A DNA stretch of 64,000 nucleotides from an uncultured virus (IMG/VR IMGVR_UViG_3300042893_001183) (lineage: Duplodnaviria > Heunggongvirae > Uroviricota > Caudoviricetes). A model generated the notes under the pieces. That model saw only the letters and a list, made by a program, of their open reading frames with translations. It was not told the origin of the DNA and did no database searches. The DNA is taken from IMG/VR virus record IMGVR_UViG_3300042893_001183; one strand, written 5' to 3'. The first letter of the stretch is position 1, and every line of letters starts with the position of its first letter. Below are positions 3,001 through 55,173 of the stretch, piece after piece. The position numbers and the translations under genes were made by a program.

Positions 3001-4706
3001 GAGCCAGATGTTCCTGAAGAACCTGAAGTTCCACTTGAGCCACTTGTTCCGTCTATTCCTGATGTTCCTGTTGTTCCACTTGAGCCAGATGTTCCTGTTG
3101 TTCCTGATGAACCGCTAGTTCCTGAAGAACCTGAAGTTCCGTCTATTCCTGAAGTTCCACTTGAGCCACTTGTACCTGTTGTTCCTGAAGAACCTGAAGT
3201 TCCACTTGAGCCACTTGTTCCGTCTATTCCTGATGTTCCTGTTGTTCCACTTGTTCCACTAGTTCCTGAAGAACCTGAAGTTCCGTCTATTCCTGATGTT
3301 CCTGAAGTTCCACTTGAGCCACTTGTTCCGTCTATTCCTGAAGTACCACTAGTTCCTGATGAACCACTTGTTCCTGTTGTTCCTGAAGAACCACTTGTTC
3401 CGTCTATTCCTGAAGTACCACTAGTTCCTGAAGAACCACTTGTTCCGTCTATTCCTGAAGAACCACTAGTTCCTGAAGAACCACTTGTTCCTGAAGTACC
3501 ATCTGTTCCTGAAGAACCACTTGTTCCTGAAGTACCATCTGTTCCTGAAGTACCTGTTGAACCTGAAGTACCATCTGTTCCACTTGTACCTGAAGTACCA
3601 TCTATTCCACTTGTGCCTGAAGTACCATCTGTTCCGCTAGTTCCGTCTGTACCTGAAGTACCATCTGTTCCGCTAGTTCCGTCTGTTCCACTTGTACCTG
3701 AAGTACCATCTGTTCCGCTAGTTCCTGAAGTCCCGTCTGTTCCGCTAGTTCCTGAAGTACCATCTGTTCCACTTGTACCTGAAGTACCATCTGTTCCACT
3801 TGTACCTGAAGTACCATCTGTTCCGCTAGTTCCGTCTGTACCTGAAGTACCATCTGTTCCGCTTGTACCTGAAGTACCATCTGTTCCTGAAGTTCCGCTA
3901 GTTCCTGTTGTTCCTGAAGTACCATTTACACCACTTAATCCTGAAGAACCACTTGTTCCTGATGTTCCACTTGAGCCAGATGTTCCTGTTGTACCTGATG
4001 TTCCTGAAGTACCTGAAGAACCGCTAGTTCCTGATGTTCCACTTGAGCCAGATGTGCCTGTTGTTCCTGAAGTACCACTAGTACCACTTGAGCCAGATGT
4101 GCCTGTTGTTCCTGAAGTACCACTAGTTCCTGTAGAACCTGAAGTGCCACTTGTTCCTGTTGTTCCTGAAGTACCATCTGTTCCGCTAGTTCCGTCTGTA
4201 CCTGAAGTACCACTTGAGCCAGATGTGCCTGTTGTTCCTGAAGTACCACTAGTTCCTGATGTTCCACTTGAGCCAGATGTGCCTGTTGTTCCTGAAGTAC
4301 CACTAGTACCACTTGAGCCAGATGTGCCTGTTGTTCCTGAAGTACCACTAGTTCCTGTAGAACCTGAAGTGCCACTTGTTCCTGTTGTTCCTGAAGTACC
4401 ATCTGTTCCGCTAGTTCCGTCTGTACCTGAAGTACCATCTGTTCCGCTAGTTCCGCTAGTTCCTGAAGTGCCATTTACACCACTAATTCCACTTGTTCCT
4501 GAAGTACCTGAAGTACCTGAAGTACCATCTGTTCCACTAGTTCCTGTTGAACCTGAAGTACCATCTGTTCCACTAGTTCCGTCAGTACCTGAAGTACCAT
4601 CTGTTCCACTAGTTCCATCAGTACCTGAAGTACCATCTGTTCCACTAGTTCCGTCTGTACCTGATGTACCATCTGTTCCGCTAGTTCCTGAAGTACCACT
4701 TGTTCC
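1..4706. repeat. 9-bp-period coding tandem repeat (about 520 Gly-X-Y triplets) with nested longer duplications
   Basis: Units such as gttcctgaa, gtaccactt, gagccagat; 4024-4212 is repeated at 4249-4437. Confidence 0.95.
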
Positions 4707-5573
4707 TCCTGTAATTACTACTGTAATGTTTCCACCACCATCATTTATAACTGATGCTCCACTGAATGTAATTCCTGAAACAGAAGTAACTGGTGTTCCA
4801 CCGTCTCCAACGGATAAGGCTGAGCCAGACCCTGAAGTTATGCCCGTAATTGATACTATACTACCATCACTATTATTAAGAGATAACGTTGAAGTACCAC
4901 TATTATAAGTTCCTCCTGTTACCGTTCCTGTAAATCCTGTAATTGATACTGTTCCACCATCGCTATCATATAAATTTAACGTTGTTGTTGCAGAAAAATA
5001 TGTACCTCCTGTAATTGAAGTATCATTTAGATTAGCAATTCTCCATCTAGCGTTTTCTTTAGTAACTCCATTTACTCCTTCAATTGTTGAACCTGTCCAA
5101 GCATCCATAAGGGCTTGTCCACCAGCACCAATGTTCAATAATTGATATCCTGTACCTAAGTCAGTAATATCTCCATCAGCAACTGCTAAGTTCCATAAAC
5201 TTGAATAGTTAGGAATTGTGTATTGATATGTTGTTTGAGCTTCTTGAACAAATACCAACATTCCCAATCTTCTTCTACCTGAAGAAATTCCATCATTATT
5301 AAGATTTAGTTGATTAATTACTGGTGGATTAAAAGGGACGTATCCTCCACAAATAAAACTGATAGGTATTACGTTTCCTGAAAAAGCAACAGGTCCTCCA
5401 CCATCATATATTTCTTGTGGGATTGTCCAATTTAAATTGTCAAGGCTCCACACCTCTTGATATCCGCCGACACTGTTTACACTGAACATTACACCAGTGT
5501 CGTTATCTCTATTTACTGAAATAGGACCTTCAATTATTGCTCCAGATGTGGGATTTTTATATTCAAAGCTCAT
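1..5573 (-). CDS. Giant collagen-like (Gly-X-Y) fibre protein, 3' end beyond the window; absent from the ORF track
   Basis: ATG at 5573 gives MSFEYKNPTSGAIIEGPISV...GRRRLGMLVFVQE...; about 289-aa globular N-terminus, then G-T-S/G-S-S/G-T-T/G-T-D/G-I-D triplets from 4706 to position 1 with no in-frame stop seen. Confidence 0.9.
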   Translation of the reverse strand, partial: MSFEYKNPTSGAIIEGPISVNRDNDTGVMFSVNSVGGYQEVWSLDNLNWTIPQEIYDGGGPVAFSGNVIPISFICGGYVPFNPPVINQLNLNNDGISSGRRRLGMLVFVQEAQTTYQYTIPNYSSLWNLAVADGDITDLGTGYQLLNIGAGGQALMDAWTGSTIEGVNGVTKENARWRIANLNDTSITGGTYFSATTTLNLYDSDGGTVSITGFTGTVTGGTYNSGTSTLSLNNSDGSIVSITGITSGSGSALSVGDGGTPVTSVSGITFSGASVINDGGGNITVVITGGTSGTSGTSGTDGTSGTDGTSGTDGTSGTDGTSGTDGTSGTDGTSGTDGTSGSTGTSGTDGTSGTSGTSGTSGISGVNGTSGTSGTSGTDGTSGTDGTSGTDGTSGTTGTSGTSGSTGTSGTSGTTGTSGSSGTSGTSGTTGTSGSSGTSGTSGTSGTTGTSGSSGTSGTDGTSGTDGTSGTTGTSGTSGSTGTSGTSGTTGTSGSSGTSGTSGTTGTSGSSGTSGTSGSSGTSGTSGTTGTSGSSGTSGTSGSSGLSGVNGTSGTTGTSGTSGTDGTSGTSGTDGTSGTDGTSGTDGTSGTSGTDGTSGTSGTDGTSGTSGTDGTSGTSGTDGTSGTSGTDGTSGTDGTSGTDGTSGTDGTSGTSGIDGTSGTSGTDGTSGSTGTSGTDGTSGTSGSSGTDGTSGTSGSSGTSGSSGIDGTSGSSGTSGTSGIDGTSGSSGTTGTSGSSGTSGTSGIDGTSGSSGTSGTSGIDGTSGSSGTSGTSGTTGTSGIDGTSGSSGTSGSSGTTGTSGSSGTSGIDGTSGSSGTSGSSGTTGTSGSSGTTGTSGIDGTSGSSGTSGSSGTSGSSGTSGSSGTSGSSGTSGSSGTTGTSGTSGSSGTTGTSGTTGTSGSSGTSGTSGSSGTSGSSGTSGTSGTSGSSGTTGTSGSSGTSGSSGTTGTSGSSGTSGTSGIDGTSGSSGTSGSSGTSGSSGTTGTSGSSGTSGSSGTSGSSGTTGTSGSSGTSGSSGTTGTSGSSGTSGTSGTSGSSGTTGTSGSSGTSGSSGTSGSSGTSGSSGTSGSSGSSGTSGIDGTSGSSGTSGSSGTSGSSGTSGSSGTSGSSGSSGTSGIDGTSGSSGTSGSSGTSGSSGTSGSSGSSGVTGCSGFDGTSGTSGTSGTSGSSGTSGSSGTSGSSGTSGSSGTSGSSGTSGSSGTTGTSGTSGSSGTTGTSGSSGTTGTSGSSGTSGSSGTSGTSGTTGTSGSSGTSGSSGTSGSSGTSGTSGTSGSSGTSGSSGTTGTSGTTGTSGSSGTSGSSGTTGISGSSGTSGVSGESGTSGISGTAGTGGTSGSSGTSGTSGSSGTSGTSGSSGTTGTSGSSGTSGTSGSSGTSGTSGTTGTSGSSGTTGTSGTSGSSGTSGTSGSTGTSGTSGTTGTSGSTGTSGTSGIDGTSGTSGSTGTSGTSGTSGTSGTTGTSGSSGTSGTSGTSGSTGTSGTSGTTGTSGSTGTSGTSGIDGTSGTSGSTGTSGTSGTTGTSGSSGTSGTSGSSGTSGTSGTSGTTGTSGTTGTSGSSGTTGTSGTSGSTGTSGTSGTTGTSGTTGTSGSSGTSGTSGTSGSSGTSGTSGTTGTSGSSGTSGTSGTSGTSGTSGTSGTSGSTGTSGTSGTTGTSGTTGTSGSSGTSGTTGTSGSSGTSGTSGSTGTSGTSGSTGTSGTSGTTGTSGTSGTTGTSGTTGTSGSSGTSGTSGTSGSTGTSGTTGTSGTTGTSGSSGTTGTSGTSGTSGTSGTTGTSGSSGTTGTSGTSGTTGTSGSSGTTGTSGSSGTSGTSGTSGSSGTTGTSGSSGTSGTSGTSGSSGTSGTSGTTGTSGSSGTSGT

Positions 5574-5616
5574 TTTCTATTATTTTTATTTCTATTATTT
5601 TTTATTTATAAAATTA

Positions 5617-7446
5617 TTATACTAACGTTCCTCCTTGTAAATAATTCGGTAGTGATGATGTTGATAGTCTGAAATCTGTTGCAGTAAATGTACTATACAT
5701 CCTATACGCTCCTGCAGGTATATTAGTACTTCCAGAATAGTTTATTATCAAATTGTTAGGTGCAGAACCATTATAAGTTGTACTCATTGTTTTTGGTGTC
5801 ATTGACCCAGCTCCTGTACCGTTGTTAATTGTTGAGTATAGTTGTCCGTTTGTTGCTCCCGTTGAAACAAACACTGTAACCCAGTTGTTTGTTGTTGCTG
5901 TAAATGCTCCAATTGGAATTTGAACAGTTTGGAATTTATATGCAACAATAGCATTACCATATGCGTCACTACCTCCACTTGTTGTTGATATTGGAGCTGT
6001 TATAATTGCTGGTTCTCCTCCTGAAGTTATAGCTCCTGTCCATCCTGAATAAGCTAAATATGCGTTCATTTGTGCATTAAATGTTGCCTGAACTGTTGAT
6101 GGTGAATTAGGAACTTGGTTAAACCCTCTCCAAGAGCTTCCTTGAGATGTCATCCATGTACTTAAATTAGCTTTAGATTGTGTACCATTTGTATCAATGA
6201 ATATGTATGCAAATAATGGTTGGTTAGTAGGTGTAGGTGAAGGTGTGTTAGTTGGTGTTGTTGTATTAGTTGGTGTCTGTGTTTGTGTTACTGTTGGTGT
6301 GTTTGTTGGCGTCTCAGTAGGTGTTGAAGTTACGGTTGCAGTATTAGTTGGTGTTGGTGTCATAGTCGACGTTTCAGTTGCCGTTGCAGTAACCGTTGCT
6401 GTATTAGTCGGAGTAGGAGTTGATGTTGCTGTTTCAGTAGGTGTTGATGTTAACGTTGTAGTTGGTGTGCTTGTAACTGTTGGAGTCTGAGTTGGTGTTT
6501 CAGTCGGAGTACTTGTTGGAGTCTCACTTGGAGTCTGTGTTGGAGTCTCTGTATTAGTTGGTGTTACTGTAGGTGTTGAAGTCTCAGTATTTGTAGGCGT
6601 ATTTGTAGGAGTCTCACTTGGAGTCTGTGTTGGAGTCTCTGTATTAGTCGGAGTTACACTTGAAGTATTTGTTGGTGTATTTGTAGGCGTTTCTGTTGGA
6701 GTTGGTGTAGATGTTTCAGTATTTGTAGGCGTATTTGTAGGAGTCTCACTTGGAGTCTGTGTTGGAGTCTCTGTATTAGTTGGCGTGTTTGTAGGAGTTT
6801 CGGTTGGAGTTTCGGTTGGAGTTTCGGTTGGAGTCTGTGTTGGAGTTTCTGTATTAGTTGGCGTATTTGTAGGTGTCTCTGACGGTGTATTTGTCGGAGT
6901 CTCAGTTGGTGTTGGTGTAGATGTCTCAGTATTAGTTGGAGTGTTTGTAGGAGTCTCTGACGGTGTATTTGTCGGAGTTTCAGTATTTGTAGGAGTTGAA
7001 GTTGCAGTTTCAGTTGGCGTATTTGTTGCGGTAATTGTTGGAGTAGTTGTTGGAGTAACTGTAGGTGTTTGAGTCGCAGTCTCGGTTGGAGTAGGACTAG
7101 CTCCGTTTGAAGCTGTTTGACTTGGCGTGGCTGTTTGAGTTGGCGTGCTAGTTGTTGTTTCTGTCGGAGTCGGTGTAGACGTTGCGTTTGGCGTTCCAGT
7201 TGGAGTTGGAGTTGGTGTTGGTGTTGTACATTCTAAAACAACAACGATACCATTAAACATATCATTTCTTGATGCCGCAGAATAGTAAATAACATCGTTT
7301 ACATAAATATTAAACGGACCAAGAGCATTTGAATTAGAAGCTAATCTAACAATGTATGTAGTACACCCTGTTACCGTTAATTGTTGTTCAATTTCGGTAG
7401 AGCATCCTGGGGCGTTATTTGTGACAAGAATATTATAAGTGGACAT
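5617..7446 (-). CDS. Thr/Pro-repeat (mucin-like stalk) virion protein with globular N- and C-terminal domains
   Basis: 609 aa; central [24 protein letters not shown] repeats; lies in the structural cluster. Confidence 0.8.
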
Positions 7447-7531: not shown

Positions 7532-7891
7532 TTAAACAGCTACCATACTACATGATGCATCACTCGAATATATGTTGAAATCACAATTTGATTCTTGAAT
7601 ATCAATGTTCACAATACAAGACTCCAATTCAATTGTAATTTGGAAAGTACATCCAAATGTACAATCTAAAATTTTAAATACAGTGCAATTATTGGAGTCA
7701 ACTAATGTCAACATTATTTGAGGTGCAGTCTGAAAAATTGAAGGTATTACTGTGTTATAATAAACTGTAGGTGGGACCGCAGTACTTATGGTACCAATCA
7801 AAGTTTGATAATTTCCATAAACATCCGATATGTAAACACTAAACGGATACGCCGTACTTCCTGATATGTCTGTTATTCTAACTTGTGTCAT
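7532..7891 (-). CDS. Small Cys-containing structural-cluster protein
   Basis: ORF track 7532-7900; the ATG at 7891 overlaps the upstream TGA (ATGA) and is the likelier start. Confidence 0.65.
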   Translation of the reverse strand: MTQVRITDISGSTAYPFSVYISDVYGNYQTLIGTISTAVPPTVYYNTVIPSIFQTAPQIMLTLVDSNNCTVFKILDCTFGCTFQITIELESCIVNIDIQESNCDFNIYSSDASCSMVAV

Positions 7892-10020
7892 GATAAGCAC
7901 ATTATGTCATAAACTATGATTAAGTCAATTACAATTTCTTGTCCTTGTAAGGATGTATTGTTTTTGCTTGTTTCAATAGTAATTTGATTATTTAATTGGT
8001 TAATAGTCACCTTACCTATACCAGGAATACTCAACAATAAACTTTTTATAGTATTATACCATAAATTATCACTTGGAGCTTGGACTAAAGATGTTGAAGT
8101 GAAGAATGGTTGGCTAACCACTATTCCCGCAGGATTTACCGATACTTTGGCTGTATATGTCGCATTAACTAAACTACAACTTGTATTACCTGTGGTTAAA
8201 TCATAAAATCCTTCGTTCAACATTTGTAACATACCAAATTTAGTTGGTGAAGAAACGTTGAATACTTCCGCACCCATAACATATGATTGATATGAAGCAT
8301 AATTTTTATAACAATTAATACTTGTTGTTCTTGTTAAAGAACATCCATTATCATCAACTACGGTTAAACTATATGTTCCCGCGGTTAATCCTGTAACTTG
8401 AATTTGTTGTGGTTCATTAGGAACATTATCCGACCAATTAAAATTAAATGGTGGTTCACCTGATGATATAAATGCGGTTATCTGTCCATTACTACCACTA
8501 CCACAAGAAGTACTATATAATGAGAAATCTAAACGTTGGCTAAACGGAATAAAAACAGTTTGATTTTGAACACACCCATCAGAATCGGTAACACTAACAT
8601 TATGGGCTCCTGCCGATAAATTATTGAACGTTACCGCACTTAAGTTAGTATCAAGTACGTTATATAACCCATCAACTGAATAATCTAAAGGCATTGTACC
8701 TCCTGTTGTCGAATATATGGTTATTGTCCCATTATTTTGATTACAACTTGTTTCAGTAACATTTGTTGAAATTGTAAATTTGTTTTCTGTTATAATGGTA
8801 ACTTCTTGCATGTAAGAACATCCTGTTGAATCTGAAACTGCAACAGTATAAGTTCCTGTTGATAAACCATCAAAAACATTAGTTGTTTGAGAAGTGTTTA
8901 TATTAAGTTGTGTACCATCTGGTGAAATTAACGTATAAGTATATGGAGTGGCTCCTCCAACTACTGATATTTGAATCAATCCATTGGTACTTGAACAAGT
9001 TGAATTTTGATTAGTTACCAATACTGAAGTTATCCCACCAGGAGTTTGTAATGTAGTTCCTGCAAATAATTGACAATATGCTGCGTCTGTAACTTGAAAG
9101 CTATAATCACCTGCAGTCAATCCTGATAAACTGTAAGTTCTTGAATACGATATTAATACGTTACCTGTTGATGCCGAATAATAAAAAGGCTCAGTTCCTC
9201 CTGTAATAGTTAAATTAATAACACCATTATTTTGAAAACAACTTGGTGATGTTGAAGTTATAATACCTAGTCCAATTTGATTAACATTTGTTACTGACCC
9301 TTCTGCTGATTTTGTACATCCATATGCGTCTGTTACAGAAACAGAATAACTACCTGAGGTTAATCCTGTAATTGTACTCCCTGTTTGACCATTACTCCAA
9401 AGATATGAGAATGGTGCTTGTCCTGTTTGTCCTGTTACAATTATCTTACCTATTGGAGTTCCTCCACAACTTGAATTTGGCACAACATATAATCCAAAAC
9501 TAAACTCCGTTGAAGTATCAATAATAAAGCTTTGTGTTTCACCCGTACACCCCCCTAAATCTTGAGCCACTAAATAATAAGAACCATAGTCAATTCCTCC
9601 AAAAATAATTTCTGATGTATTAGTTACTCCTGATTGAATCAAGGAGTTACTCATATTATACAGATAGAAATTTGTTGAAGAATATTGAGATGTTGACGTT
9701 CCTGTTACAGAACCATTGATAAAATTACATGTAGTATCTTGCACACCTAAAATTGATGCACACACACCACTTGAAACTGGTATGTTTATATAAAATTCTT
9801 GGTTTGTTGGTATTGTAGAATCGTTAACTCTGATTACATATGTATTTGCCGACAATCCATATCTAGATGAATCTAGTACTGCAGTGTCTTGTCCTAAATT
9901 AGGGTCTGTCCATTGAACGGTATATGGTGCGGTGCCTCCTGTTGGTACTATAGTAATAGCACCACCATTATTCGATTGGCAATCACCCGTAATCTGTAAT
10001 ATATAATTAAAAGCTGCCAT
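7888..10020 (-). CDS. SprB-repeat (Ig-like) adhesin/fibre protein
   Basis: Repeated C..NG.I....GGT.PY.Y.W...GL..G.Y.V.VTD..GC units typical of SprB repeats. Confidence 0.8.
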   Translation of the reverse strand: MAAFNYILQITGDCQSNNGGAITIVPTGGTAPYTVQWTDPNLGQDTAVLDSSRYGLSANTYVIRVNDSTIPTNQEFYINIPVSSGVCASILGVQDTTCNFINGSVTGTSTSQYSSTNFYLYNMSNSLIQSGVTNTSEIIFGGIDYGSYYLVAQDLGGCTGETQSFIIDTSTEFSFGLYVVPNSSCGGTPIGKIIVTGQTGQAPFSYLWSNGQTGSTITGLTSGSYSVSVTDAYGCTKSAEGSVTNVNQIGLGIITSTSPSCFQNNGVINLTITGGTEPFYYSASTGNVLISYSRTYSLSGLTAGDYSFQVTDAAYCQLFAGTTLQTPGGITSVLVTNQNSTCSSTNGLIQISVVGGATPYTYTLISPDGTQLNINTSQTTNVFDGLSTGTYTVAVSDSTGCSYMQEVTIITENKFTISTNVTETSCNQNNGTITIYSTTGGTMPLDYSVDGLYNVLDTNLSAVTFNNLSAGAHNVSVTDSDGCVQNQTVFIPFSQRLDFSLYSTSCGSGSNGQITAFISSGEPPFNFNWSDNVPNEPQQIQVTGLTAGTYSLTVVDDNGCSLTRTTSINCYKNYASYQSYVMGAEVFNVSSPTKFGMLQMLNEGFYDLTTGNTSCSLVNATYTAKVSVNPAGIVVSQPFFTSTSLVQAPSDNLWYNTIKSLLLSIPGIGKVTINQLNNQITIETSKNNTSLQGQEIVIDLIIVYDIMCLS

Positions 10021-13007
10021 TAAATGGTATTACAATTTATACTAATGTTTATTCCTGAATTTAAAGATAAAATCTCTCCAACATTTCTTTCTGTACAAGT
10101 AAGGCTTGTTACTGTTAAAATATTACCATTTAGGTAATAAGTGTATCCATATTTATATAATTCAGGTAGATATTGAATTAAAGCATTTCTCCAATCTCTG
10201 TTTGATGGCACGTCTGTTAATCCATATCCAGTATAAAATGGTTCTTCTATAATATTATCACCTCCAATTGTTAAATTAACAAACCAATTAGATTGTACTG
10301 AATTTTGTACACATTCAGTTAAAGTTACCCCACTTGATGATAACATATTATTTAATCTGTTGGACAAAATACTACTAAAATTACTTACATTAGTATCACC
10401 ATTTAACCAAGGATATATATTAAAATCTATATACTCCGTCGTACATGTATAATCAAATATATTTGAAATAATAAAACAAGGGTCGACAGGTACTGGTATA
10501 AACTGGCATCCTCTTTGTCTTCTATAAACAAATTTTTGTTTATGTAAAACTGAGTTTTCCATTCTAACACCTGTATTCCAAATAGTTGTGGCAGGAATCA
10601 TTTGTTCGGCCAATTTCATCCAATAAGGTCCAATACCGTTTACGTAATCAATTAATTTTTGATACGTATACTTGTTGTTTGGTAATCCCACAGTGGCTTC
10701 AGATTCAATATATTTCCACCAAATAGATTGTAATGTTGGATATCCTCCTGTCTTACCATCTGTAATGTATTGTCTATTTCTAACATTAATCATGTTCTGC
10801 CAAAATGTTTGAGAGAACTCGAAGAATGTTTTTTTCTTTGGTTCGGGATTAACTCTTGTCCAATCTACTCCACCAGGTACAGGATAACCAACAGTTAATC
10901 CTGATTCGGGAATCGGATAGTCATATCTTCTTGACTCGTCCCATACATCGTATACAAGACCTTGTCCAGGGTTTAAAAATAAATCAACATTCTTAACATT
11001 TAGAACTAATTTTTCATTATCAACATAATAGTAAGCGTTATAATCCGCGTTTGTTGAAACCCTAATTTTGTTATCTTCTTCTAACCATGATTTATTATTA
11101 TCAACTACTTGAGTTAATTTAAAACCTTCTGTCATATATGGAAAATCTCTAAATCTATTCAAGTATGGTTGACCATAAGAGAATGGAGTTAATTGAGTTT
11201 GAATATTGTAGTTTTGGCCTGTGTATACACTTCCTGTAATTTGTACTTGGTCTGGACTTCTGTGTTGTGGAGTTACTTCGTACCATCCCGCTCCTAATTG
11301 GAAGAAATAATCCTCAGTATTAAGAGGCGCTTGAGGATAACCTAAATCATCTATTGGATAATCTTCTAACCTAATATTAACATCACTGTAAGTTGCAACA
11401 GATGTGAAAGCGCTATACACACTTCCTTTAATTTTATATGTTTGTCCTGGCAAATAAGATGGAGTATCTTGTACGTATGTACCTCCCGATATTGATGCCC
11501 ATTGTGTGTAGAATTGGTCTAAGTTAATTTTTTGGTCAGCGAGATAAATGTGTTCATTAAATTCAATTAATGATTCGGGTGCTCCAATCAATCTCATCAT
11601 AAATTCAACAGACCTTCTTGTTCCTTTAGATTTAAAAAGGTATGCCGCATTTAAAATTAAGTTTCTATAAAACGCATAATTTAATTCTGTTGGTGTAAGG
11701 GCTCTTGCATAACCAGGATAAGTTGGTGTATTGGTATTTCCAAAAACAGAACTTAAAAAATCTTCATTTGTTATTGGTGAAAAATTTGAAGAGTACCCTA
11801 ACGTTCTTGCGAGGTTAACTAACAACTCAGATGGAATATCATTTTCAGGGTTATAATTAACCGAATTCATATAAGCCAAAGCGTCAATGAATTGTTTTAC
11901 TTGGTCAAAACTTCTACCATATATTTGGAATATTTTCTCGACCTTTTGTCCTCTTGTGTCAAATTCTTTTAACGAATCAGTAACCAAAAATCTTGATATT
12001 AAATTTGTTTTAAATGAATCTAAATTCTGTCCAATTTCCTCTAACTTACTCAAATAATCATCAAACAAAAACGACCTAATATCTAAATTCCAATTACCGT
12101 CTAACGGCCAAGTAACTTGTTGATAGTCAGTATAAAATTGCCCGTCTTCATTTTGTTGAGGTACTTGGAATATTGCAGTATATGGTGGTCTTATTAAACG
12201 ATTTAATAAAAACTTCTCGACCTCATCAAAATTCTCCGCAAAGATTTTATCTGTAATAAAATCATTTGGTTTTATTTGGTATTGTTCGTTCGTTGTAGAG
12301 GCTGTAGTACCAAATGGTGCTCCTGATACATAAAATTGAATATACCCCGAATTTAACGTCTCTGATGGGGTAAACGACACAACATTATATATGTTATCAT
12401 TAATACTTACACAATAATCTAAATAAGTGTTATATAAGTTTCTGTATGGTGACTGCGTAATCTCACTAGCTAATAAATTAGTTGATGCACTTATTGAGTA
12501 ATCAATACCAAAAGGGTTATTAATTCTATTAACATCAACTTGAAAATAAGTTTCATCTGTTGTTTCATCATATTGAATATCAATCGCGGTAGGTCCTGTT
12601 GTAAAATCAAGGTTAGTATACATGATATCCAAAGAAGCTGGAAACTGATGAAGAATATGAGTAACCGAAACTTGGAATCTTTTACTTAAAGAACCATACA
12701 TTGAAAAGTTAAGAACTTGAGATACATCATAGTTTGGATAAACTCTAAATTGAGTTGCCATTATTCTACGACTTTCGGTTAAATCTTCAATATCTAACGA
12801 ATCTAAACTAATTGGTTCAGAGAATGCTCCAACGTTAAAAGTTCTATTAACCTTTTCTACTACTGACGTTGTAAACTCAAAATTACCTTGCGTAAGTCCT
12901 CCACCCTCAACTGTTTGTAATCCTACAATGTTGTCGGAAAAAGTTGCGGCGCCACTACCAGGTCTTGGAGGGTAAAAGTATTTCGTAGTCTTTTGCGTTA
13001 TCGCCAT
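10020..13007 (-). CDS. Baseplate wedge protein, T4 gp7/P2 gpI-like core
   Basis: IPSELLVNLARTLG and FKSKGTRRSVEFMMRLIG motifs; context. Confidence 0.6.
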   Translation of the reverse strand: MAITQKTTKYFYPPRPGSGAATFSDNIVGLQTVEGGGLTQGNFEFTTSVVEKVNRTFNVGAFSEPISLDSLDIEDLTESRRIMATQFRVYPNYDVSQVLNFSMYGSLSKRFQVSVTHILHQFPASLDIMYTNLDFTTGPTAIDIQYDETTDETYFQVDVNRINNPFGIDYSISASTNLLASEITQSPYRNLYNTYLDYCVSINDNIYNVVSFTPSETLNSGYIQFYVSGAPFGTTASTTNEQYQIKPNDFITDKIFAENFDEVEKFLLNRLIRPPYTAIFQVPQQNEDGQFYTDYQQVTWPLDGNWNLDIRSFLFDDYLSKLEEIGQNLDSFKTNLISRFLVTDSLKEFDTRGQKVEKIFQIYGRSFDQVKQFIDALAYMNSVNYNPENDIPSELLVNLARTLGYSSNFSPITNEDFLSSVFGNTNTPTYPGYARALTPTELNYAFYRNLILNAAYLFKSKGTRRSVEFMMRLIGAPESLIEFNEHIYLADQKINLDQFYTQWASISGGTYVQDTPSYLPGQTYKIKGSVYSAFTSVATYSDVNIRLEDYPIDDLGYPQAPLNTEDYFFQLGAGWYEVTPQHRSPDQVQITGSVYTGQNYNIQTQLTPFSYGQPYLNRFRDFPYMTEGFKLTQVVDNNKSWLEEDNKIRVSTNADYNAYYYVDNEKLVLNVKNVDLFLNPGQGLVYDVWDESRRYDYPIPESGLTVGYPVPGGVDWTRVNPEPKKKTFFEFSQTFWQNMINVRNRQYITDGKTGGYPTLQSIWWKYIESEATVGLPNNKYTYQKLIDYVNGIGPYWMKLAEQMIPATTIWNTGVRMENSVLHKQKFVYRRQRGCQFIPVPVDPCFIISNIFDYTCTTEYIDFNIYPWLNGDTNVSNFSSILSNRLNNMLSSSGVTLTECVQNSVQSNWFVNLTIGGDNIIEEPFYTGYGLTDVPSNRDWRNALIQYLPELYKYGYTYYLNGNILTVTSLTCTERNVGEILSLNSGINISINCNTI

Positions 13008-13957: not shown

Positions 13958-15046
13958 TTAGGTTCTTTTCTTATTATCGACATTAAAAAATCCATAACCA
14001 TAATTAATCATGTCTCCTAAATTATCAACCTCCCCTAATCTTTGCACTCTTTCATATGCGCTATTCTTTCCTCTCTCCACAAATACATCTGTTTGTACTT
14101 GAGCTTGGTCAATAACTTTTAATAAAACCTCATCTTTTGTTATTGGACTTGCTTGTAGATTATTCTCAGTTAGTCCTGATGATTGTTGAAAGAAAATTGT
14201 TGTCCCGTCACTATAGTCATAATAGTTTACGTTTGTTATAGTGTAAGCAGTATATACCGAATTAATGTCAGATATTGCCCCCCATATTTGTCCGTTAGCA
14301 ATAACAGGAACTCCAACTTGGAATTTTGGCGAACCGTATTGGGCTAATTCATTAACTCTTGATTTGGTTATTCCAGATACAGTAAATGGTATTGTTACAT
14401 AATTATTAGACGTTTGTGCGGACACAACATTAACCGCATCTCCTGAAAATATATAATCATATGATACAGATGTTCCAATCCAATTTCCAGCCGAAGGAGT
14501 AAAATAAGCAGTTCCTTGTGGGTTATAAATCGTTGGATTTGTAAACGGAGTCTTAATTATTTTTGATACTCTTGTTACACCCCATGGATTGGTTTGTTCC
14601 ATAGTAATAGTGTATTCACTATTTGCCGAAGCGTAAGTATGTGTTATTGATGTTGGTGTATACCCTGTTATAATTTCTTTTGGTGTGCCGTCTCCCCAAT
14701 CAACTTTGTATGCAGATAAATCTAAAAACTTTTGAAATTGATTTGAGGTATTATAAACATTATAAACATATGGATTTGTAGTTGTTGATGAAAATATGAA
14801 ATTTGCAACAACATCTTTTTGTAATACCGCCCCATCAAATGGACTATAGTAACCTGCGTCTACTGCTGTTTGTCTTAATAAAATAGGTACCGTTAAGTTA
14901 GTCAATAACGAAGCTCCATAAGGACCTGAACTAACAACCGCAGTCATTGCAGAATAAACACCTACAGGCGTTCCATCATAACTAACAATGGACAAATCTC
15001 TTTTGACGTTTTCTGGTGATACCGTTATTTTATATAAGTCTTGCAT
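13958..15046 (-). CDS. Structural protein with PKD-like segment
   Basis: YKVDWGDGT...ITHTY...YTITM resembles the PKD signature. Confidence 0.6.
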   Translation of the reverse strand: MQDLYKITVSPENVKRDLSIVSYDGTPVGVYSAMTAVVSSGPYGASLLTNLTVPILLRQTAVDAGYYSPFDGAVLQKDVVANFIFSSTTTNPYVYNVYNTSNQFQKFLDLSAYKVDWGDGTPKEIITGYTPTSITHTYASANSEYTITMEQTNPWGVTRVSKIIKTPFTNPTIYNPQGTAYFTPSAGNWIGTSVSYDYIFSGDAVNVVSAQTSNNYVTIPFTVSGITKSRVNELAQYGSPKFQVGVPVIANGQIWGAISDINSVYTAYTITNVNYYDYSDGTTIFFQQSSGLTENNLQASPITKDEVLLKVIDQAQVQTDVFVERGKNSAYERVQRLGEVDNLGDMINYGYGFFNVDNKKRT

Positions 15047-15870
15047 TATTGTGGCGGATTAACATATTCGAACCATTTTATGGGTATATTTGTTCCCATC
15101 CTTTGACCTTGGGTATTAAAGACTTGATATGTTTGAGTTGTATAATCCAACTTAACCGTATAGTAGAAATACTGAGTACTATCAAAGGCGTATTTATTAC
15201 CCGATAAATAAACTTGAGGCCCGTTTGTTTGGTCCAAAGGATTAGTCCCTTTACCCGTCATCATTTTAGTAAATTGGCCTGTCTTAGCATTGTAAAACTT
15301 GGCACTCATATAAAATGTACTAACATCCAAAAAATTTCTTTTCTTTAACCAATAAATAAAAAACCCTTCTTTATCTCCAACATAATCTAACACAAACTTT
15401 GGTTTCTTAATATTAACCAATGTTCTTTGCATTTGAGTTTCCATTGTTAAACCTTGTTGGGTTGGTAAAATTATTGTCAAATAATTTTTTTGGGCTTTTT
15501 CATCAGGAGTGTCATAAAAGTCTAATTTGAAAAATGAATTACTAAAATTATTTTCGTAATAATAAACTTCTTGAGGCGTAAACCCTTCACCTAAATAATT
15601 GATTCTCCAATTATTAATATCGTTTAATGAACCACCAGAATAAAAATAAAACTCATAATTAATTTCAGTATTATTTGTTGTTGCAGTTGCAGGCAAATGT
15701 TCAAATCTTGAAACTTCAAAATCTCTGCCAACACCTATTACTTCAGTAATGACAGTTTTTTCGTACTCCTCAATTGCCATATCTAAACCTAAATAATCCC
15801 ATTGCAATTCAACAGGAATATTGATTTGTTTGTCGGTAATTCCGTCTTGTCTTATTACTACTTTATTCAC
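15046..15870 (-). CDS. Hypothetical structural protein
   Basis: 274-aa ORF overlapping both neighbours. Confidence 0.6.
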   Translation of the reverse strand: MNKVVIRQDGITDKQINIPVELQWDYLGLDMAIEEYEKTVITEVIGVGRDFEVSRFEHLPATATTNNTEINYEFYFYSGGSLNDINNWRINYLGEGFTPQEVYYYENNFSNSFFKLDFYDTPDEKAQKNYLTIILPTQQGLTMETQMQRTLVNIKKPKFVLDYVGDKEGFFIYWLKKRNFLDVSTFYMSAKFYNAKTGQFTKMMTGKGTNPLDQTNGPQVYLSGNKYAFDSTQYFYYTVKLDYTTQTYQVFNTQGQRMGTNIPIKWFEYVNPPQ

Positions 15871-17578
15871 AATTATCTATTAATGGTTTGAATGAAAAAT
15901 CATATCCTGTTAGATTATCATTATAGTTTATACCTTCAGGTATTAATCTAAAATTAATATCTGAGTATGGGTATTGAGCCGTATTTAAATATGGATAATC
16001 CACTCCTCTACCAAAATTATCTCTATATCCATAAGTATATAAGTCTCTCCATCTGAACTGTTGGTCAGTCATAGAATAGAATGACCATTCAGGTACTTGG
16101 TCTACAAAAGCAATTCCTCCTGTTTCGATGTAATCAGAGAATACTCTAATTGTCATCTTATTATGAGGTTGGTAATAATATCCTGGCGCGTTTGTTGTTG
16201 CAACCGTTGTTGTTTGAAAAACAGTTTGATTAAACTTTAATTTATGAAAATAAGGAGATACTACTCTTTCTATTTGCTCATAGTCATTCCATTCACAAAA
16301 ATCACCGTCCATTAAATCTTCTTTTTTCAAGTCTAAATTATAATAGAATGTTTTGGTCTCTCCGTTTGTTAATGTATATGCCGAGACTGGTATGTTTGTA
16401 TTTGATTTTTCATTAGTTAAATTCCACCACGGATTTGTCGTCTTTGATAAATTAAACTCCCATCCTTGTTTCAATCCAACTCCATTTTGTGGGCTATTAA
16501 AATAACCTGAATAACCCTTATTAACTATTGTTAAATAAATTTCAGTTATTGGTCTTTGTTGATTATCTTTTAATCCTGCAAAATCTAAATCATATTTTGA
16601 TGTTAAATTATAAGTATTACTACTAGTTTTTTGAGAAATTCTTGTAATGTTGTTTGGAGTTATTGAACTATATTCTAATTTCTTTTCTTCATTAAAAATA
16701 TTTTTTTCAAACCCAGCTTTAACCATTTCAAGGTCAGTTAAATTTGTTAAAACTTTGTTTTGTTTTACATAATATTTTGACTTAGTTTCCGTTAAATTAT
16801 CAGGATTAATAACTCTTTTAAACGTACCTGTTGTACCATTACTAAATGTTGTTCCTGTATATCCAATATTCAAAACATTAAAAACATAAACACCACTATC
16901 AAATAACCCATTACCTAAAGAGTATACTTGGAATATATTTGAATTTCTATATGTTAAAGATAGTTCAACATATTCACCCTCAGTTAATCCATGAGGCGCA
17001 ATACAATTAAACGCGATAAGTCCATTACCGTTTGATGTAGAATTTAATATTGAAAAAGGTATCCCATCCTTTGCTAACCAATTTACCGCATTTGTATTAT
17101 TTGAATAATAAGTTAATTCTTTATTATAATTGTTTTCATATGGATATGTTAGATAGTACATCCAATTATAGGTATAAGCACTTTTTGACTTATATACAAA
17201 ATGTTGGTCTGAAATATCTGGTCTAAAAAAATCAAATTCATAATATTGCGGATAACCAGGCCATTTACCATTACCACCATTTTGAGCACTTGATTTTGAA
17301 TTCTCTGGACTTGTATAATAAAGATTATATTGGAAAGGTAAGTATCCCGTAGTTCCTGTATAAGTATTGGCATATAAATACGAGACTTTAAACGTTGGTC
17401 TAAAGATTGTACATCCTTGTCTTTCGTCATCATATACTTGAGCTAAACTAATTGTTGAACTCCTATCATACTCAGTGATTTGTTGACTTTGTTCTTCAAG
17501 TGTTAATGAAATTTCTTCATTAACCGATGGTGCTCCTTTATATCTTAAGTTACTTGGAACTATTGTATACTTACTCAT
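15863..17578 (-). CDS. Hypothetical structural protein
   Basis: 571-aa Tyr/Thr/Asn-rich ORF in the coupled operon. Confidence 0.6.
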   Translation of the reverse strand: MSKYTIVPSNLRYKGAPSVNEEISLTLEEQSQQITEYDRSSTISLAQVYDDERQGCTIFRPTFKVSYLYANTYTGTTGYLPFQYNLYYTSPENSKSSAQNGGNGKWPGYPQYYEFDFFRPDISDQHFVYKSKSAYTYNWMYYLTYPYENNYNKELTYYSNNTNAVNWLAKDGIPFSILNSTSNGNGLIAFNCIAPHGLTEGEYVELSLTYRNSNIFQVYSLGNGLFDSGVYVFNVLNIGYTGTTFSNGTTGTFKRVINPDNLTETKSKYYVKQNKVLTNLTDLEMVKAGFEKNIFNEEKKLEYSSITPNNITRISQKTSSNTYNLTSKYDLDFAGLKDNQQRPITEIYLTIVNKGYSGYFNSPQNGVGLKQGWEFNLSKTTNPWWNLTNEKSNTNIPVSAYTLTNGETKTFYYNLDLKKEDLMDGDFCEWNDYEQIERVVSPYFHKLKFNQTVFQTTTVATTNAPGYYYQPHNKMTIRVFSDYIETGGIAFVDQVPEWSFYSMTDQQFRWRDLYTYGYRDNFGRGVDYPYLNTAQYPYSDINFRLIPEGINYNDNLTGYDFSFKPLIDNCE

Positions 17579-51926: not shown

Positions 51927-51933
51927 TTTGGCT

Positions 51934-51956
51934 AAAGGGGGGATTTAACTCCCCCC
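51934..51956 (-). terminator. Hairpin after tail sheath gene
   Basis: gggggga/tcccccc stem, short TTT tail. Confidence 0.6.
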
Positions 51957-51966
51957 ATAATTTTTA

Positions 51967-54900
51967 TTAGATATTTTCAAACGAAGCTCCTGTTGGAGTG
52001 ATGAAGAATTCAATGTCGATGAATTCTAATGCCTTCGTAGGTTTTAAGTAGATTTTACCTGTTAAAGTATTTCTATCTAAGTCTTCAGGTGTTGAAGAAA
52101 CTGTTACACGGAAATCGTATAAACCTCTGTCTCTTCTTATTGAATCTAAAATAGGGTTAACACTATCTAAGAATTGTTGTCTAACGATTTGGTCGTTTTG
52201 TTCGAACAATAATCTTACCGCTACCGCTGAAATTAATTTACGAGCTTGTAATAACAATCTTCTTACGTTTAATCTGTTCAATGCTGAATCAGCTACTTGT
52301 AATGTTTTGTTACCCCAAATTACTGTACCAACGTCTGCGAATGTTGCGATTGGGTTGATTCTACCTTGATAAAGAGTATCTCTATCTTCTTGAGTCAACT
52401 TAACTCTCGCTTTGATTGAATTTACAAGACCTCTTGTGTAACCCGCTGATGCGAACCAAGGGAATGCAATATTATCAGTCAATGCTAAGTTTCTACAAAC
52501 TTCACCTGTTGGAGGTAAGTAGATTTGTGTATTATTAACAGTATCTCTTACCAAAATCCATGGGTAATAAGTTGCAGTATAGTTTGAATCTATTCCTGTA
52601 TTATCTAAGTTATCAACTGCCTCTTGTGGGTAGATGATATCTAAAGAGTTAGTTCCATCTGGAGTATACATTAGATAGTCAGGAGTTGTTGCGATATACA
52701 CAGAGTCAGCTCTTTGATATTGAACCATATCAATAGCTTCCTCAACAAGATTTGAGTTATTAACATAATCGATACTTGAAGTTGCAAATATGTTAATGTT
52801 TGTTGCTTCAGGATTAGCGAATGTTAATATACCAAGTAAGTAAGCGTAATAATCGGTGTTAGCAAAATCTTGAGTATTGTTTGCAACAACAATTCTTTTA
52901 AATAAACCATCACCTGTTGCTGTTGGGTATCTTGTAGAAGACGAAGCTCCTGCTAAGTAACCTGTCGCCCCTAATTGGAATCTATCTTGGTTAGTTCTAA
53001 ATTCTCTATAAACATCCCACCCGTCAAATCCACCTGCGAAACATATTGTATATTTTCTTGAATAGATAAAGTAGTAAGGGTTTTCTTGAGTCTCAGGGTC
53101 GAATCTGAAATCCGCAACACCACACTCAAATGCTGTTTGACCACTTGTTTGGAATGAATTTGCAATTGTAACTACAGTTGCTCCTGAGTCCATGTGGAAT
53201 CCTTTACTTAAATAATTCCAAGGTTCACCTGCAATAGGTAATGCAGAAGAGACCCAGTTAGGTGGATTTTGTCTACCTTTAAATTGTAAGAACGCATCAT
53301 CAATTCCAAATTGGGAAGAGAAACCTAAGTAAGCTCTTCTAACAATATCACCCGCAGATTCAGTTGCGTTTGTTGTAGAACCAAATGGAGGGTTATAAAT
53401 AACCTCACCTGGAAAATAGTATTTAGTTTTGAATGTAGGTACTGGTGAAATATTAGCAGTTGATTCGTATTCTCTTTGAGTATAACCGTAGAATCCACAA
53501 GGGATTGCATCTATCGGAGCTTCATCAGCTAATTCAATCATTACATATCTTGAAATTAAAGCAAATTCACCGTTAGACGAACCAATTTTCTTAGCAACAA
53601 AGTTGTTTGAAGCTGGGTCCATGTTACAGTTTGTAAATTTCTCAATTACAACAGGATTAGCATCTGTATCAAAGAAGTTTCTAACCAATACATCAAATGT
53701 CATATTGTTAAATGATAAGTTTGCAATTGAAACTTTAACTTCTGTGTTAGCTGCGTCACCATCAGAGATTGAGATAAACTTAAATAATCTATATACTTTA
53801 TTACCTCTTAACTCAGATACCAAGAACGGAGTTTCAGGTGATTGATATTTTTCAACTTTATAAGCGATTGATTGTGTATTTTCACCTCTAGCATCTTCTA
53901 ATGCAACTAACTCAGGATTAATTCCTTTAATATAACCTTGGTTATATGCGTAGTTTAAAGAACCTGGATAAATTTCTTCAACATATAATGGAACCTCATT
54001 TCTTGATTTTCCAAAATTATCAACACCTAAAACTTTAGTTATAAACTTAGGAGACGCCGCAGATAATGAAGTTTCAAAAGAGAAAGTATCAGAATCTTTA
54101 GTAATACCTGAAAGTAAGAATCCTTCATATGGTGAATTTGTAATACCTGAATATTGTCCTGTTGCAACTAAATTAACATCAGTTAATCCACTTACTTCGT
54201 ATATAGGACCGTGTTGACCAAGGTCTGCGTTGTTTGAGTATAATGAAATACCTCTTGAACGTAAAGTTGCAACAACCATGTTGTTATATTCACTATATGC
54301 AGTTCCTGAGAAGTTGAATACATCACCTTCAATAGTACCTGTGTAAGTTGCTCCACCGTCAGTTGTTGTTAAAGACGATACAGTATAATAAAATGAATAA
54401 CCTGAGTAGTTGTTATTAACATTAGCATCATTGTCAAATGTTGCGTAATACCAAGGGTCATTTAAATCTGCACTTAAATCATTAGTGTCAAGGTTGTTTG
54501 AACTAGACCCAAATACATTTAATTGATTTGAATATTGACTAACTAATCCCCAATATGTTGATGAAGGTACCGAACCATAAAATGCAACTGTTGTTGCAGA
54601 AAACGATGGGTTATCAATAATATTACCTAAGTTAGAATTAAAATCATCTTGATATGTAGAAGTACTACCATCAGATAATCTATATTGTACGTTTAGGTTG
54701 TTCTGAACATCTGTAGGTAATCCACTTATCATATCAATAGTACTACCTGAAGTAGCACCTGTAAATATTGCAGTAAATGATGTACCTGTATTTGTAATAC
54801 CAATAGTTAATGGGTCAACATTGGCAGTAACTCTAATACTCCAAGAGGGTCCCGCGTCGTATCCCGACAACCCTAATACTCTTGTAACAAACAATTGGTT

Positions 54901-55173
54901 AGATTGTTGTAAGTATGACTTGGCAATGTATGCCGCTTCATATTTTGGGATTTGTGTGTTTACAAATTTTACTGGTTCCGTTCCGCCAAAATAAGCTTGG
55001 AACTCGTCGTAGTTAGTTATAAAAACAGGTTCGAATGCAGGGCCCTTTATTGTTTCCCCTACTAAACCTAAGGTAGTAACACCGACACTCTGTGCTACGA
55101 ACGAAAGGTCCGTTTCAGATGTGTATACTCCAGGTGATACAAAAACTTTTTGATTTGCTTGTGCTGTTGCCAT
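51967..55173 (-). CDS. Contractile tail sheath protein, T4 gp18-like
   Basis: SPGVYTSETDLS; PWFASAGYTRG; RDTLYQGRINPI; WGNKTLQ; LNVRRLL. Confidence 0.95.
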   Translation of the reverse strand: MATAQANQKVFVSPGVYTSETDLSFVAQSVGVTTLGLVGETIKGPAFEPVFITNYDEFQAYFGGTEPVKFVNTQIPKYEAAYIAKSYLQQSNQLFVTRVLGLSGYDAGPSWSIRVTANVDPLTIGITNTGTSFTAIFTGATSGSTIDMISGLPTDVQNNLNVQYRLSDGSTSTYQDDFNSNLGNIIDNPSFSATTVAFYGSVPSSTYWGLVSQYSNQLNVFGSSSNNLDTNDLSADLNDPWYYATFDNDANVNNNYSGYSFYYTVSSLTTTDGGATYTGTIEGDVFNFSGTAYSEYNNMVVATLRSRGISLYSNNADLGQHGPIYEVSGLTDVNLVATGQYSGITNSPYEGFLLSGITKDSDTFSFETSLSAASPKFITKVLGVDNFGKSRNEVPLYVEEIYPGSLNYAYNQGYIKGINPELVALEDARGENTQSIAYKVEKYQSPETPFLVSELRGNKVYRLFKFISISDGDAANTEVKVSIANLSFNNMTFDVLVRNFFDTDANPVVIEKFTNCNMDPASNNFVAKKIGSSNGEFALISRYVMIELADEAPIDAIPCGFYGYTQREYESTANISPVPTFKTKYYFPGEVIYNPPFGSTTNATESAGDIVRRAYLGFSSQFGIDDAFLQFKGRQNPPNWVSSALPIAGEPWNYLSKGFHMDSGATVVTIANSFQTSGQTAFECGVADFRFDPETQENPYYFIYSRKYTICFAGGFDGWDVYREFRTNQDRFQLGATGYLAGASSSTRYPTATGDGLFKRIVVANNTQDFANTDYYAYLLGILTFANPEATNINIFATSSIDYVNNSNLVEEAIDMVQYQRADSVYIATTPDYLMYTPDGTNSLDIIYPQEAVDNLDNTGIDSNYTATYYPWILVRDTVNNTQIYLPPTGEVCRNLALTDNIAFPWFASAGYTRGLVNSIKARVKLTQEDRDTLYQGRINPIATFADVGTVIWGNKTLQVADSALNRLNVRRLLLQARKLISAVAVRLLFEQNDQIVRQQFLDSVNPILDSIRRDRGLYDFRVTVSSTPEDLDRNTLTGKIYLKPTKALEFIDIEFFITPTGASFENI

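Follow-up and report, generated by a model that had tools for sequence, protein, structure and literature searches.

Very few cases of protein glycosylation in phage particles are known to us, and none of them with a defined sequon. The general O-glycosylation system of Bacteroidota recognises the sequon D-(S/T)-(A/I/L/V/M/T) and operates outside the cytoplasm, away from the site of virion assembly. Virus-encoded enzymes and atypical sequons (NTGT, NTET, NTAT, and NIPG) are known from PBCV-1 (PMC9614988). Mycobacteriophage glycans are located, as described in PMC12619734, at the C-termini of capsid and tail-tube subunits, and virions of the phage XacN1 gave at least two periodate-Schiff-positive bands, the proteins of which are not named in that account (PMC5852040). 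The present study concerns a stretch of 64,000 nucleotides from an uncultured virus of the Caudoviricetes (IMG/VR record IMGVR_UViG_3300042893_001183; the whole stretch is called the window below), in which unrelated outer virion proteins are rich in the tetrapeptide [S/T]-[G/A]-x-T. In its extended form, phi-[S/T]-[G/A]-x-T (phi = I, V, L, Y, F, or W), this motif is best explained, from comparison of sequences, as a linear tag kept by selection on outward-facing, fast-evolving parts of the virion. The tag may be the acceptor sequon for a phage-encoded cytoplasmic O-glycosylation of virion proteins, a proposal that is put forward with somewhat less than even confidence. Searches of the literature on SGXT/TGXT, among the papers listed, and on phage virion glycosylation brought up no sequon of this kind.

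With the Bacteroidota system, which belongs to the probable host phylum, the proposed modification would share the O-linkage to Ser/Thr and a short sequon (three residues in that case); the Bacteroidota sequon is, however, not enriched in the proteins studied here. The closest parallel is offered by PBCV-1, likewise a large virus that encodes cytoplasmic enzymes for glycosylation and, in part, for the synthesis of sugar nucleotides (on the side of the present phage, genes of its relatives alone). Its sequons also comprise four residues, three of the four having Thr at +3 from the acceptor, and its glycans are rich in fucose and methylated; the clade of the present phage likewise encodes fucosyl- and methyltransferases. 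The differences are that the Asn linkage of PBCV-1 has been proven by structure and mass spectrometry for one capsid protein, whereas the evidence given here is sequence only; that position 0 is Ser/Thr (NGxT 6 vs 5.8 expected), with dozens of sites per virion protein set; and that the sites lie mainly on tail, baseplate, and fibre proteins of a virus with a bacterial host. Mycobacteriophages resemble the present case in that phage-encoded glycosyltransferases decorate the phage's own virion proteins (shown there, known here from genes alone); in contrast to theirs, the sites reported here are internal and defined by a motif, the tail tube has none, and the enzyme set is far larger. XacN1 is similar as a jumbo myovirus with a PF11397 homolog and many open reading frames (ORFs) for Thr/Pro-rich, mucin-like proteins (14), and differs in the lack of [ST][GA]xT enrichment and of the GT2_5+GT4 and Agt-like enzymes described below. 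In the NGT/Agt system of Actinobacillus, large beta-rich surface proteins are glycosylated in the cytoplasm at a short sequon, and an Agt-like enzyme is also encoded here; the account in PMC12159676 describes a GT41 initiator acting on Asn in N-x-S/T, and neither GT41 nor an enrichment of N-x-S/T was found in the present case.

Results and Discussion

Enrichment of the motif

Numbers of [ST][GA]xT sites were compared with those expected from shuffled sequences. All 35 proteins of the window together contain 92 sites against 40.5 expected (20-residue local shuffles; z 8.5; reached by 0/400 shuffles), and the signal is therefore not caused by the selection of proteins. In eight large outer proteins 73 sites were counted, against expectations of 21.2 (whole-protein shuffles), 23.4 (40-residue blocks), 24.5 or 25.1 (20-residue blocks, two sets of shuffles), and 26.1 (10-residue blocks), with z from 9.8 to 11.5 over all block sizes; composition or local composition was ruled out as the cause, as the 10-residue shuffles still give z of about 10. 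No excess was observed for 11 replication and metabolic proteins (3 vs 3.6) or for 14 small or conserved-core virion proteins (4 vs 4.6). Within the eight large proteins the reverse pattern T.[GA][ST] was flat (23 vs 20.6–26.5), the Ser-ending form [ST][GA].S was not enriched (14 vs 18.9–20.7), and the shifted form [ST].[GA]T was flat or weak at most (31 vs 21–26.7). NG.T was not enriched (6 vs 5.8), DGxT not at all or only weakly, and other sequons were flat in the same proteins (N-x-S/T 126 vs 145, SGxG 3 vs 4.3). An unbiased scan of about 24,000 patterns of the types a-b-x-c, a-x-b-c, and a-b-c placed TGxT (37 vs 12.2; p 8e-9) and SGxT (29 vs 9.2; p 1e-7) at the top, behind a TPT-type low-complexity repeat of one protein. 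The form extended by a hydrophobic residue at -1 was found 47 times against 7.7 expected (z 14.8).

A preliminary description of the window, made by eye, had named unrelated outer proteins as rich in the motif, and every tetrapeptide that it listed is present. Its counts were exact for the 362-residue protein (6) and the sheath (8) and too low for four others (SprB-repeat protein 15 instead of 13, 1585-residue protein 13 instead of 9, hub 15 instead of 9, collagen head 7 instead of 6). The absence of sites from NrdA, DnaB, the visible part of PolB, the tube, and the gp13-like neck protein was corroborated, as was the single site in SNF2; the tape measure had also been described as free of sites, and the 617-residue protein at 47659-49512, probably the one meant, has one (TGKT, at the C-terminus). 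The comparison with shuffles, on which the claim had been staked beforehand, gave counts clearly above expectation, and the claim stands. The motif had further been held to be distinct from the Bacteroides sequon D-(S/T)-(A/I/L/V/M/T), which is borne out by a count of 28 against 33.2 for the latter (z -0.9).

The proteins concerned, with observed against expected sites, are as follows:

4719..5573, minus strand: N-terminal non-collagen head of a collagen-like fibre protein (residues 1-285 of the protein encoded by 3-5573); 7 vs 1.7, reached by 0/400 shuffles
5617..7446, minus strand: 609-residue Thr/Pro protein, PHROG 15511; 5 vs 5.4, motif not enriched
7888..10020, minus strand: 710-residue SprB-repeat protein (Pfam SprB repeat, E 3.6e-24); 15 vs 3.4
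10020..13007, minus strand: 995-residue protein of the tail/baseplate region, no Pfam or PHROG family; 7 vs 1.3
13958..15046, minus strand: 362-residue protein, no known family; 6 vs 1.0
15863..17578, minus strand: 571-residue protein, no known family; 4 vs 0.9
17571..22328, minus strand: 1585-residue protein, no known family; 13 vs 3.6
34405..42261, minus strand: 2618-residue 'hub', no Pfam or PHROG family; 15 vs 5.2
51967..55173, minus strand: 1068-residue tail sheath; 8 vs 2.5, all sites in residues 138-677

The following relatives of the phage were used for comparison: G002 (127 kb), which is collinear with the window at 92.5% nucleotide identity; G009, a complete genome of 321,283 bp with direct terminal repeats, in which the gene order of the window is matched gene for gene; and G007, G010, G011, and G012. 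The assembled share of the genome is 70% for G007 and 39% for G010, and absences from these two bear on the assembled parts. Orthologs in G009 repeat the enrichment for the 995-residue protein (6 vs 1.9), the 571-residue protein (5 vs 0.6), and the 1585-residue protein (1684 residues in G009; 11 vs 2.2).

Within single proteins the sites are unevenly placed. Several sites of the collagen head lie inside an internal repeat ending in V-S-I-T-G-x-T, and sites 27, 196, 273, and 439 of the SprB-repeat protein occupy homologous positions of the SprB repeat. All 15 sites of the hub fall in residues 1116-2498 and none in the first 1,100, a distribution suggestive of an N-terminal part that lies inside and a C-terminal part that is exposed. 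In the sheath only residues 686-1067 align to T4 gp18 (266-653), with Pfam sheath domains over 835-1058. The non-core domains of T4 gp18 make up the outer surface of the sheath, and by analogy the sheath sites would lie on an exposed expansion outside the gp18-like core.

Sharpness of the motif and its level of action

Each position of the motif was varied in a substitution scan. Position 0 accepted S (4.6x), T (2.2x), and D (2.1x), with all other residues at 1.5x or less; position 1 accepted G (3.6x) and A (2.2x), with the rest at about 1.1x or below; at position 3, T reached 3.1x and S 0.73x, and nothing else exceeded about 2x. A replicate in the G007 lineage, for which ORFs were picked regardless of motif count, gave S 2.8 and T 1.5 at position 0, G 2.1 and A 1.8 at position 1, and T 2.0 and S 0.77 at position 3. 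I, Y, L, and V at -1 raised the enrichment two- to threefold above the motif's own level. Among 1,041 pooled sites a hydrophobic residue was found at -1 in 48% (33% background) and Pro at x in 1% (4% background); no further sequence context, strand periodicity, or alternating hydrophobicity was detected in this pool.

A motif at the level of DNA was ruled out, since Ser is drawn from both of its codon families (AGY and TCN) and no excess appears when these genes are read in the other five frames (0, 0, 0, 7 vs 9.8, 0). The codons of the sites are nevertheless skewed: Thr at position 0 is encoded by ACA in 27/33 cases, whereas ACA accounts for 49% of Thr elsewhere, also where Gly/Ala follows (p 2.5e-4); for Gly at +1 the codon is GGA in 31/51 (p 0.018). 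In an independent protein set the ACA skew was weak (10/15; p 0.065) and the GGA skew absent (9/30). The ACA skew at position 0 is an oddity that is left over without explanation.

The preliminary description had called the enrichment convergent. The proteins do belong to different sequence families; 23 of 112 sites, mainly those of the SprB and collagen-head repeats, nevertheless lie in mutually similar segments, and for these the term does not hold. The remaining 89 lie in segments without detectable similarity. Motif centres gave 18 centre-aligned pairs, compared with 4–8 in three random-centre controls. One shared repeated domain was rejected as the source, as only 23/112 sites are in centre-aligned similar segments (homology at BLAST sensitivity). 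In a structure model of the 362-residue protein, of a confidence too low for use as a whole (mean predicted local distance difference test score, pLDDT, 37), site 127 lies directly after a strand, in the sole moderately confident stretch.

Selection and turnover

Close relatives of two proteins were aligned. Among 62 relatives of the sheath (77–100% identity), changes at the sites stay within the motif class: site 142 appears as SGNT, TGNT, SGST, SANT, or SAGT, and the motif is kept there in 60/63 sequences at a local identity of 0.47. In 41 sequences of the 362-residue protein (74–96% identity), sites 224, 266, and 290 are kept in 41/41 through swaps at x, between S and T, and between G and A, site 32 is kept in 40, site 209 in 36, and site 127 in 16. 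When the sheath insertion and the 362-residue protein were pooled for a conservation test among close relatives, Thr at +3 was conserved at 0.865 compared with 0.651 for other Thr (p 0.005), and Ser/Thr at 0 at 0.961 compared with 0.766 for other Ser/Thr (p 0.003); Gly/Ala at +1 showed no significant extra conservation in the same test (p 0.24). The x position in the sheath varies more than its surroundings. As judged from these alignments, the motif is under purifying selection among close relatives.

At greater distance the positions move. In 150 diverse sheath homologs (one per 50%-identity cluster) 704 sites were found against 320 expected (2.2x), with the reverse motif at 327 against 318. 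In 60 homologs at 30–61% identity, for which the alignment of the insertion domain is uncertain, site 663 is kept in 6/60, site 342 in 3/57, and site 355 in 14/54. The sites of the homologs cluster in two ranges, residues of about 100-500 and 600-700, away from the conserved core. The 126 sheath homologs of at least 700 residues showed weak bimodality (dispersion 1.39; 19 with at most one site compared with 13.6 expected). To judge by these homologs, the density of the motif is maintained while its positions move among distant relatives.

Distribution among phages and hosts

Motif enrichment was observed in the window and in 6/6 relatives scored over whole contigs. The counts were 169 vs 101 for G009, 163 vs 103 for G007, 76 vs 41 for G010, 107 vs 48.7 for G011, and 99 vs 42 for G012, with the reverse motif near expectation in each. 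Outside the part of G002 that is equivalent to the window, an 807-residue protein (13 vs 2.3), a 502-residue protein (7 vs 1.2), and a gp23-like capsid protein (4 vs 1.1) carry the motif. G009, G010, G011, and G012 had appeared to be motif-poor when only the sheath and 10 kb on either side were scored; this was discarded, as scoring over the whole length shows them to be motif-rich.

No enrichment was found in 25 structural proteins of T4 (27 vs 28.4), in 393 ORFs of the whole XacN1 genome (143 vs 154), or in the whole genome of pT24 (59 vs 55.6). The whole genome of Mel-JY01 gave 67 vs 52 with the reverse motif at 61 vs 52 and was counted as lacking the trait. A metagenome-assembled genome (MAG) of the Saprospiraceae gave 151 vs 174 over 63,737 residues, and its 22 giant SprB-type adhesins 133 vs 150. 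The idea that beta-rich tail proteins, or proteomes that are AT-rich or related to Bacteroidota, carry the motif in general was rejected, as T4, XacN1, Mel-JY01, pT24, and the Saprospiraceae sample are without the motif. On the genomes scored, the trait is specific to one clade of aquatic phages of about 320 kb with predicted Bacteroidota hosts.

As a separate observation, one Saprospiraceae contig (L143, 1-919, minus strand) carries at its edge a 306-residue ORF with 4 sites vs 0.2, unlike the rest of the sample; this ORF might be phage-derived.

Glycan enzymes encoded by relatives

It had been stated that no modifying enzyme is visible. This is true of the window, since the window ends at PolB; the collinear relative G002, however, encodes transferases from 1 kb past the right end. 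The search beyond the window for glycosyltransferase and sugar-synthesis clusters, as proposed in the preliminary description, was successful in the relatives, which carry about ten glycosyltransferases together with sugar-nucleotide enzymes just past the window-equivalent end. In G002 an HtrL/YibB-like protein, a GT25 enzyme, and a 421-residue PF11397 'GlcNAc' transferase (E 2.7e-66) are encoded 1–6 kb past the window's right end; the PF11397 gene is followed by genes for Thr/Pro-rich proteins, a small collagen-like protein, and the 807-residue motif-rich protein. A glycan-synthesis cluster is located 17–35 kb past the same end. It comprises a bifunctional GT2_5+GT4 transferase, two GT2 enzymes, and GT11, GT10, and GT1-like enzymes, along with a UDP-sugar dehydrogenase, a methyltransferase, a hexapeptide acetyltransferase, a DegT aminotransferase, a dehydrogenase, and an epimerase/dehydratase. 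At 93340-94564 and 121078-122745 (loci L095 and L096), G002 encodes an Asp/Asn beta-hydroxylase-like protein beside Sulfotransfer_2, and a NodU/CmcH-type carbamoyltransferase.

Genes that are common to G009 and G007 and absent from XacN1, Mel-JY01, and pT24 number 56, and three of these encode transferases: an enzyme of about 540 residues (GT2_5+GT4), a GT1-like enzyme of about 350 residues (Agt/AmGGT-like), and a GT2 enzyme of about 268 residues. This trio is present in G002, G009, G007, G011, and G012, and was absent from XacN1, Mel-JY01, and pT24 in BLAST/protein and profile searches. The enzyme of about 350 residues matches PDB 8XSG (AmGGT; E 3.4e-10), and ApAgt, a homolog of AmGGT, is described as extending protein-linked glucose in cytoplasmic adhesin glycosylation (PMC12159676). 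PDB sequence searches with the PF11397 protein and with the 542- and 268-residue enzymes returned no match, and a GT41 initiator (PF13844) was found in 0/5 genomes.

PF11397 is taken by us to correspond to the GT60 family. GT60 enzymes are described as polypeptide alpha-GlcNAc-transferases of protists (PMC8724618). PF11397 is present in G002, G003, G006, G009, G011, and G012, and in 0/14 control genomes; ORF334 of XacN1 is a homolog with 46% identity to a relative's enzyme and adjoins the DNA polymerase gene. In XacN1 a carbamoyltransferase gene directly follows the PF11397 gene. A PF11397 or HtrL-like protein was ruled out as reader of the motif, as enzyme and motif are not co-distributed.

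The 609-residue protein of the window contains a mucin-like (T-P-T-x)n tract at residues of about 75-410 (Thr 32%). ORFs with Thr/Pro tracts number 14 in the unrelated jumbo phage XacN1, 9 in G009, 7 in G011, 5 in G002, 4 in G012, and one each in the window and G007; none was found in Mel-JY01, pT24, or G010, and Mel-JY01 and pT24 are also without PF11397. Because the GT60-like enzyme co-occurs with the (T-P-T-x)n tracts and not with the motif, it probably serves these tracts, as a second, mucin-type system of virion glycosylation, and the 609-residue protein is a likely acceptor of this GT60-type system.

Proposed role of the motif and alternatives

An acceptor sequon is favoured because the motif is sharp and oriented, leaves x free, and lies on exposed, fast-evolving parts, and because it is selected in the short term, turned over at constant density, and confined to a clade with a rich glycan toolkit. 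In such a system the tag would be read by a phage transferase in the cytoplasm, before or during virion assembly, and the first sugar would be placed on the Ser/Thr at 0 or on the invariant Thr at +3. Further transferases would extend this sugar; enzymes for fucosyl, amino-sugar, acetyl, methyl, sulfo, and carbamoyl transfer are encoded. The trio of GT2_5+GT4, Agt/AmGGT-like, and GT2 enzymes would be the candidate core set, as it is kept in all motif-rich genomes with enough sequence, and the separate GT60-like enzyme would act on the Thr/Pro mucin-like tracts. The strict Thr at +3 would fit a Thr-preferring transferase, and Ser/Thr at 0 would parallel the spacing in PBCV-1. It is conceivable, if rather doubtful, that the clade coats nearly all outward virion proteins by two cytoplasmic systems, one using the phi-[S/T]-[G/A]-x-T sequon and the transferase trio and the other forming GT60 mucin-type stalks; phi-[S/T]-[G/A]-x-T would then be a previously undescribed sequon, with a turnover like that of the glycan shields of animal viruses. 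The suggestion of a glycosylation signal in the preliminary description is upheld in part, as far as a real, oriented, residue-specific, and selected enrichment is concerned; the GT60-family starter does not track the motif.

The hydrophobic preference at -1, the small residue at +1, the beta-branched Thr at +3, and the depletion of Pro at x would equally be expected of a local structural element (strand end, turn, or capping) in lineage-specific beta-rich modules, one that would be retained for the sake of folding or packing and read by nothing. Some sites are indeed fixed positions of the SprB and collagen-head repeats, site 127 follows directly on a strand in the model of the 362-residue protein (mean pLDDT 37), and purifying selection among close relatives fits structure equally well. 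Such an element is nevertheless possible rather than likely: the motif is absent from the homologous machinery of T4, from three further jumbo phages, of which two are AT-rich, and from 22 beta-rich adhesins; distant sheath homologs lose the positions (site 663 kept in 6/60, site 342 in 3/57) yet hold a density of 2.2x; and there is neither alternating hydrophobicity over the 1,041 sites nor mutual similarity in 89/112 segments. Specificity, selection, and turnover at kept density point to a reader of any kind, and the tag could also serve phosphorylation, hydroxylation, sulfation, or the docking of a chaperone or decoration protein. Among the gene products of the relatives are an Asp/Asn beta-hydroxylase-like protein, a sulfotransferase, and methyltransferases, and ClpB-like, DnaJ, cyclophilin, and thioredoxin proteins are specific to the clade. 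This is considered unlikely, in view of the finding that neither 96 kb of G002 nor 46/56 clade-specific genes hold a kinase or a dedicated protein modifier beyond sugar-type transferases. Sulfotransferases (PF03567) and carbamoyltransferases belong to families known for carbohydrate substrates, and Hsp70-type chaperones bind charged or extended hydrophobic cores, which have no counterpart in the motif; both count against a reader of another kind. A motif without function in the protein, arising as a by-product of biased nucleotide usage or composition or of sequence duplication, would agree with the skews towards ACA at position 0 (27/33) and GGA at +1 (31/51). This reading is very improbable and has been largely refuted: 10-residue shuffles still give z of about 10, the other five frames show no excess, Ser comes from two unrelated codon families and Ala replaces Gly, the codon skew is weak (ACA) or absent (GGA) in the independent set, and AT-rich control phages lack the motif.

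Several findings weigh against the proposed glycosylation tag. None of the enzymes could be linked to the motif, and PF11397 and the motif occur apart in both directions: XacN1 has the enzyme without the motif, and G007 and G010 have the motif without PF11397 in their assembled parts (70% and 39%). None of the trio was found in the assembled 39% of G010. As all motif-rich genomes form one clade, the association of trio and motif has to be counted as one event in evolution, which 53 further clade-specific genes share, and is weak evidence; no motif-poor member of the clade was found among the relatives scored, and the clade has no cultured member. Glycosyltransferase clusters of jumbo phages may, as described in PMC12619734, serve the modification of DNA or of the host surface. 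A 1680-residue virion protein is without enrichment (5 vs 3.4), exposure of the sites is read from domain layout only, and the hydrophobic residue at -1 and the small one at +1 would fit a packing or turn element as well.

If the tag is indeed glycosylated, widespread environmental phages would routinely sugar-coat tail, baseplate, sheath, and fibres, with consequences for adsorption, host range, the stability of the particles, and their recognition by grazers or defences; the compact acceptor tag and its cytoplasmic enzyme set could be of use in glyco-engineering. Even if its role is structural, a five-residue motif that is enriched sixfold, selected, and confined to one clade calls for explanation.

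Genome context and further observations

In the window, structural genes of a distant T4-like myovirus (tail, baseplate, sheath, and fibre), nearly all on the minus strand, are interleaved with replication genes (NrdAB, DnaB-like helicase, 5'-3' exonuclease, UvsX-like and gp32-like proteins, SNF2 helicase, and PolB). No match to any cultured phage was found for the window at the DNA level. The nearest relatives of its NrdA are from phages of Cellulophaga and Tenacibaculum (41–42%), relatives of the SprB-repeat protein were found only in Saprospiraceae MAGs, and sheath relatives occur in at least 805 IMG/VR stretches. The window matches the first 64 kb or so of G009 (loci L249-L252) in order and coordinates, with an offset of about 500 bases. 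Because of this collinearity with the first part of a genome with terminal repeats, the start of the window is probably near a genome end.

By description only, the clade looks similar to the 'moraphages', which are presented in PMC12619734 as a freshwater lineage of jumbo phages whose predicted hosts are Flavobacteriia and which have four core glycosyltransferase families. Clade-specific genes of G009 (loci L255-L263) encode ClpB-like, DnaJ, cyclophilin, and thioredoxin proteins, a sigma-70-type factor, and a Dam-type methyltransferase; the DnaJ echoes the DnaK and DnaJ homologs reported in 'moraphages' (PMC12619734).

At 58860-60398 (plus strand) the window encodes a 512-residue protein, the first half of which is a complete Fe/Mn superoxide dismutase (Pfam E 5e-40 and 6.5e-22); the remaining 280 residues or so match no known family. 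The gene at 3-5573 (minus strand) runs off the left end of the window and encodes a collagen-like fibre protein; G-X-Y repeats (GTS/GTD type) make up more than 1,570 of its residues, and the collagen part matches Pfam PF01391. This gene lifts the local GC content to 47%, compared with about 33% elsewhere.

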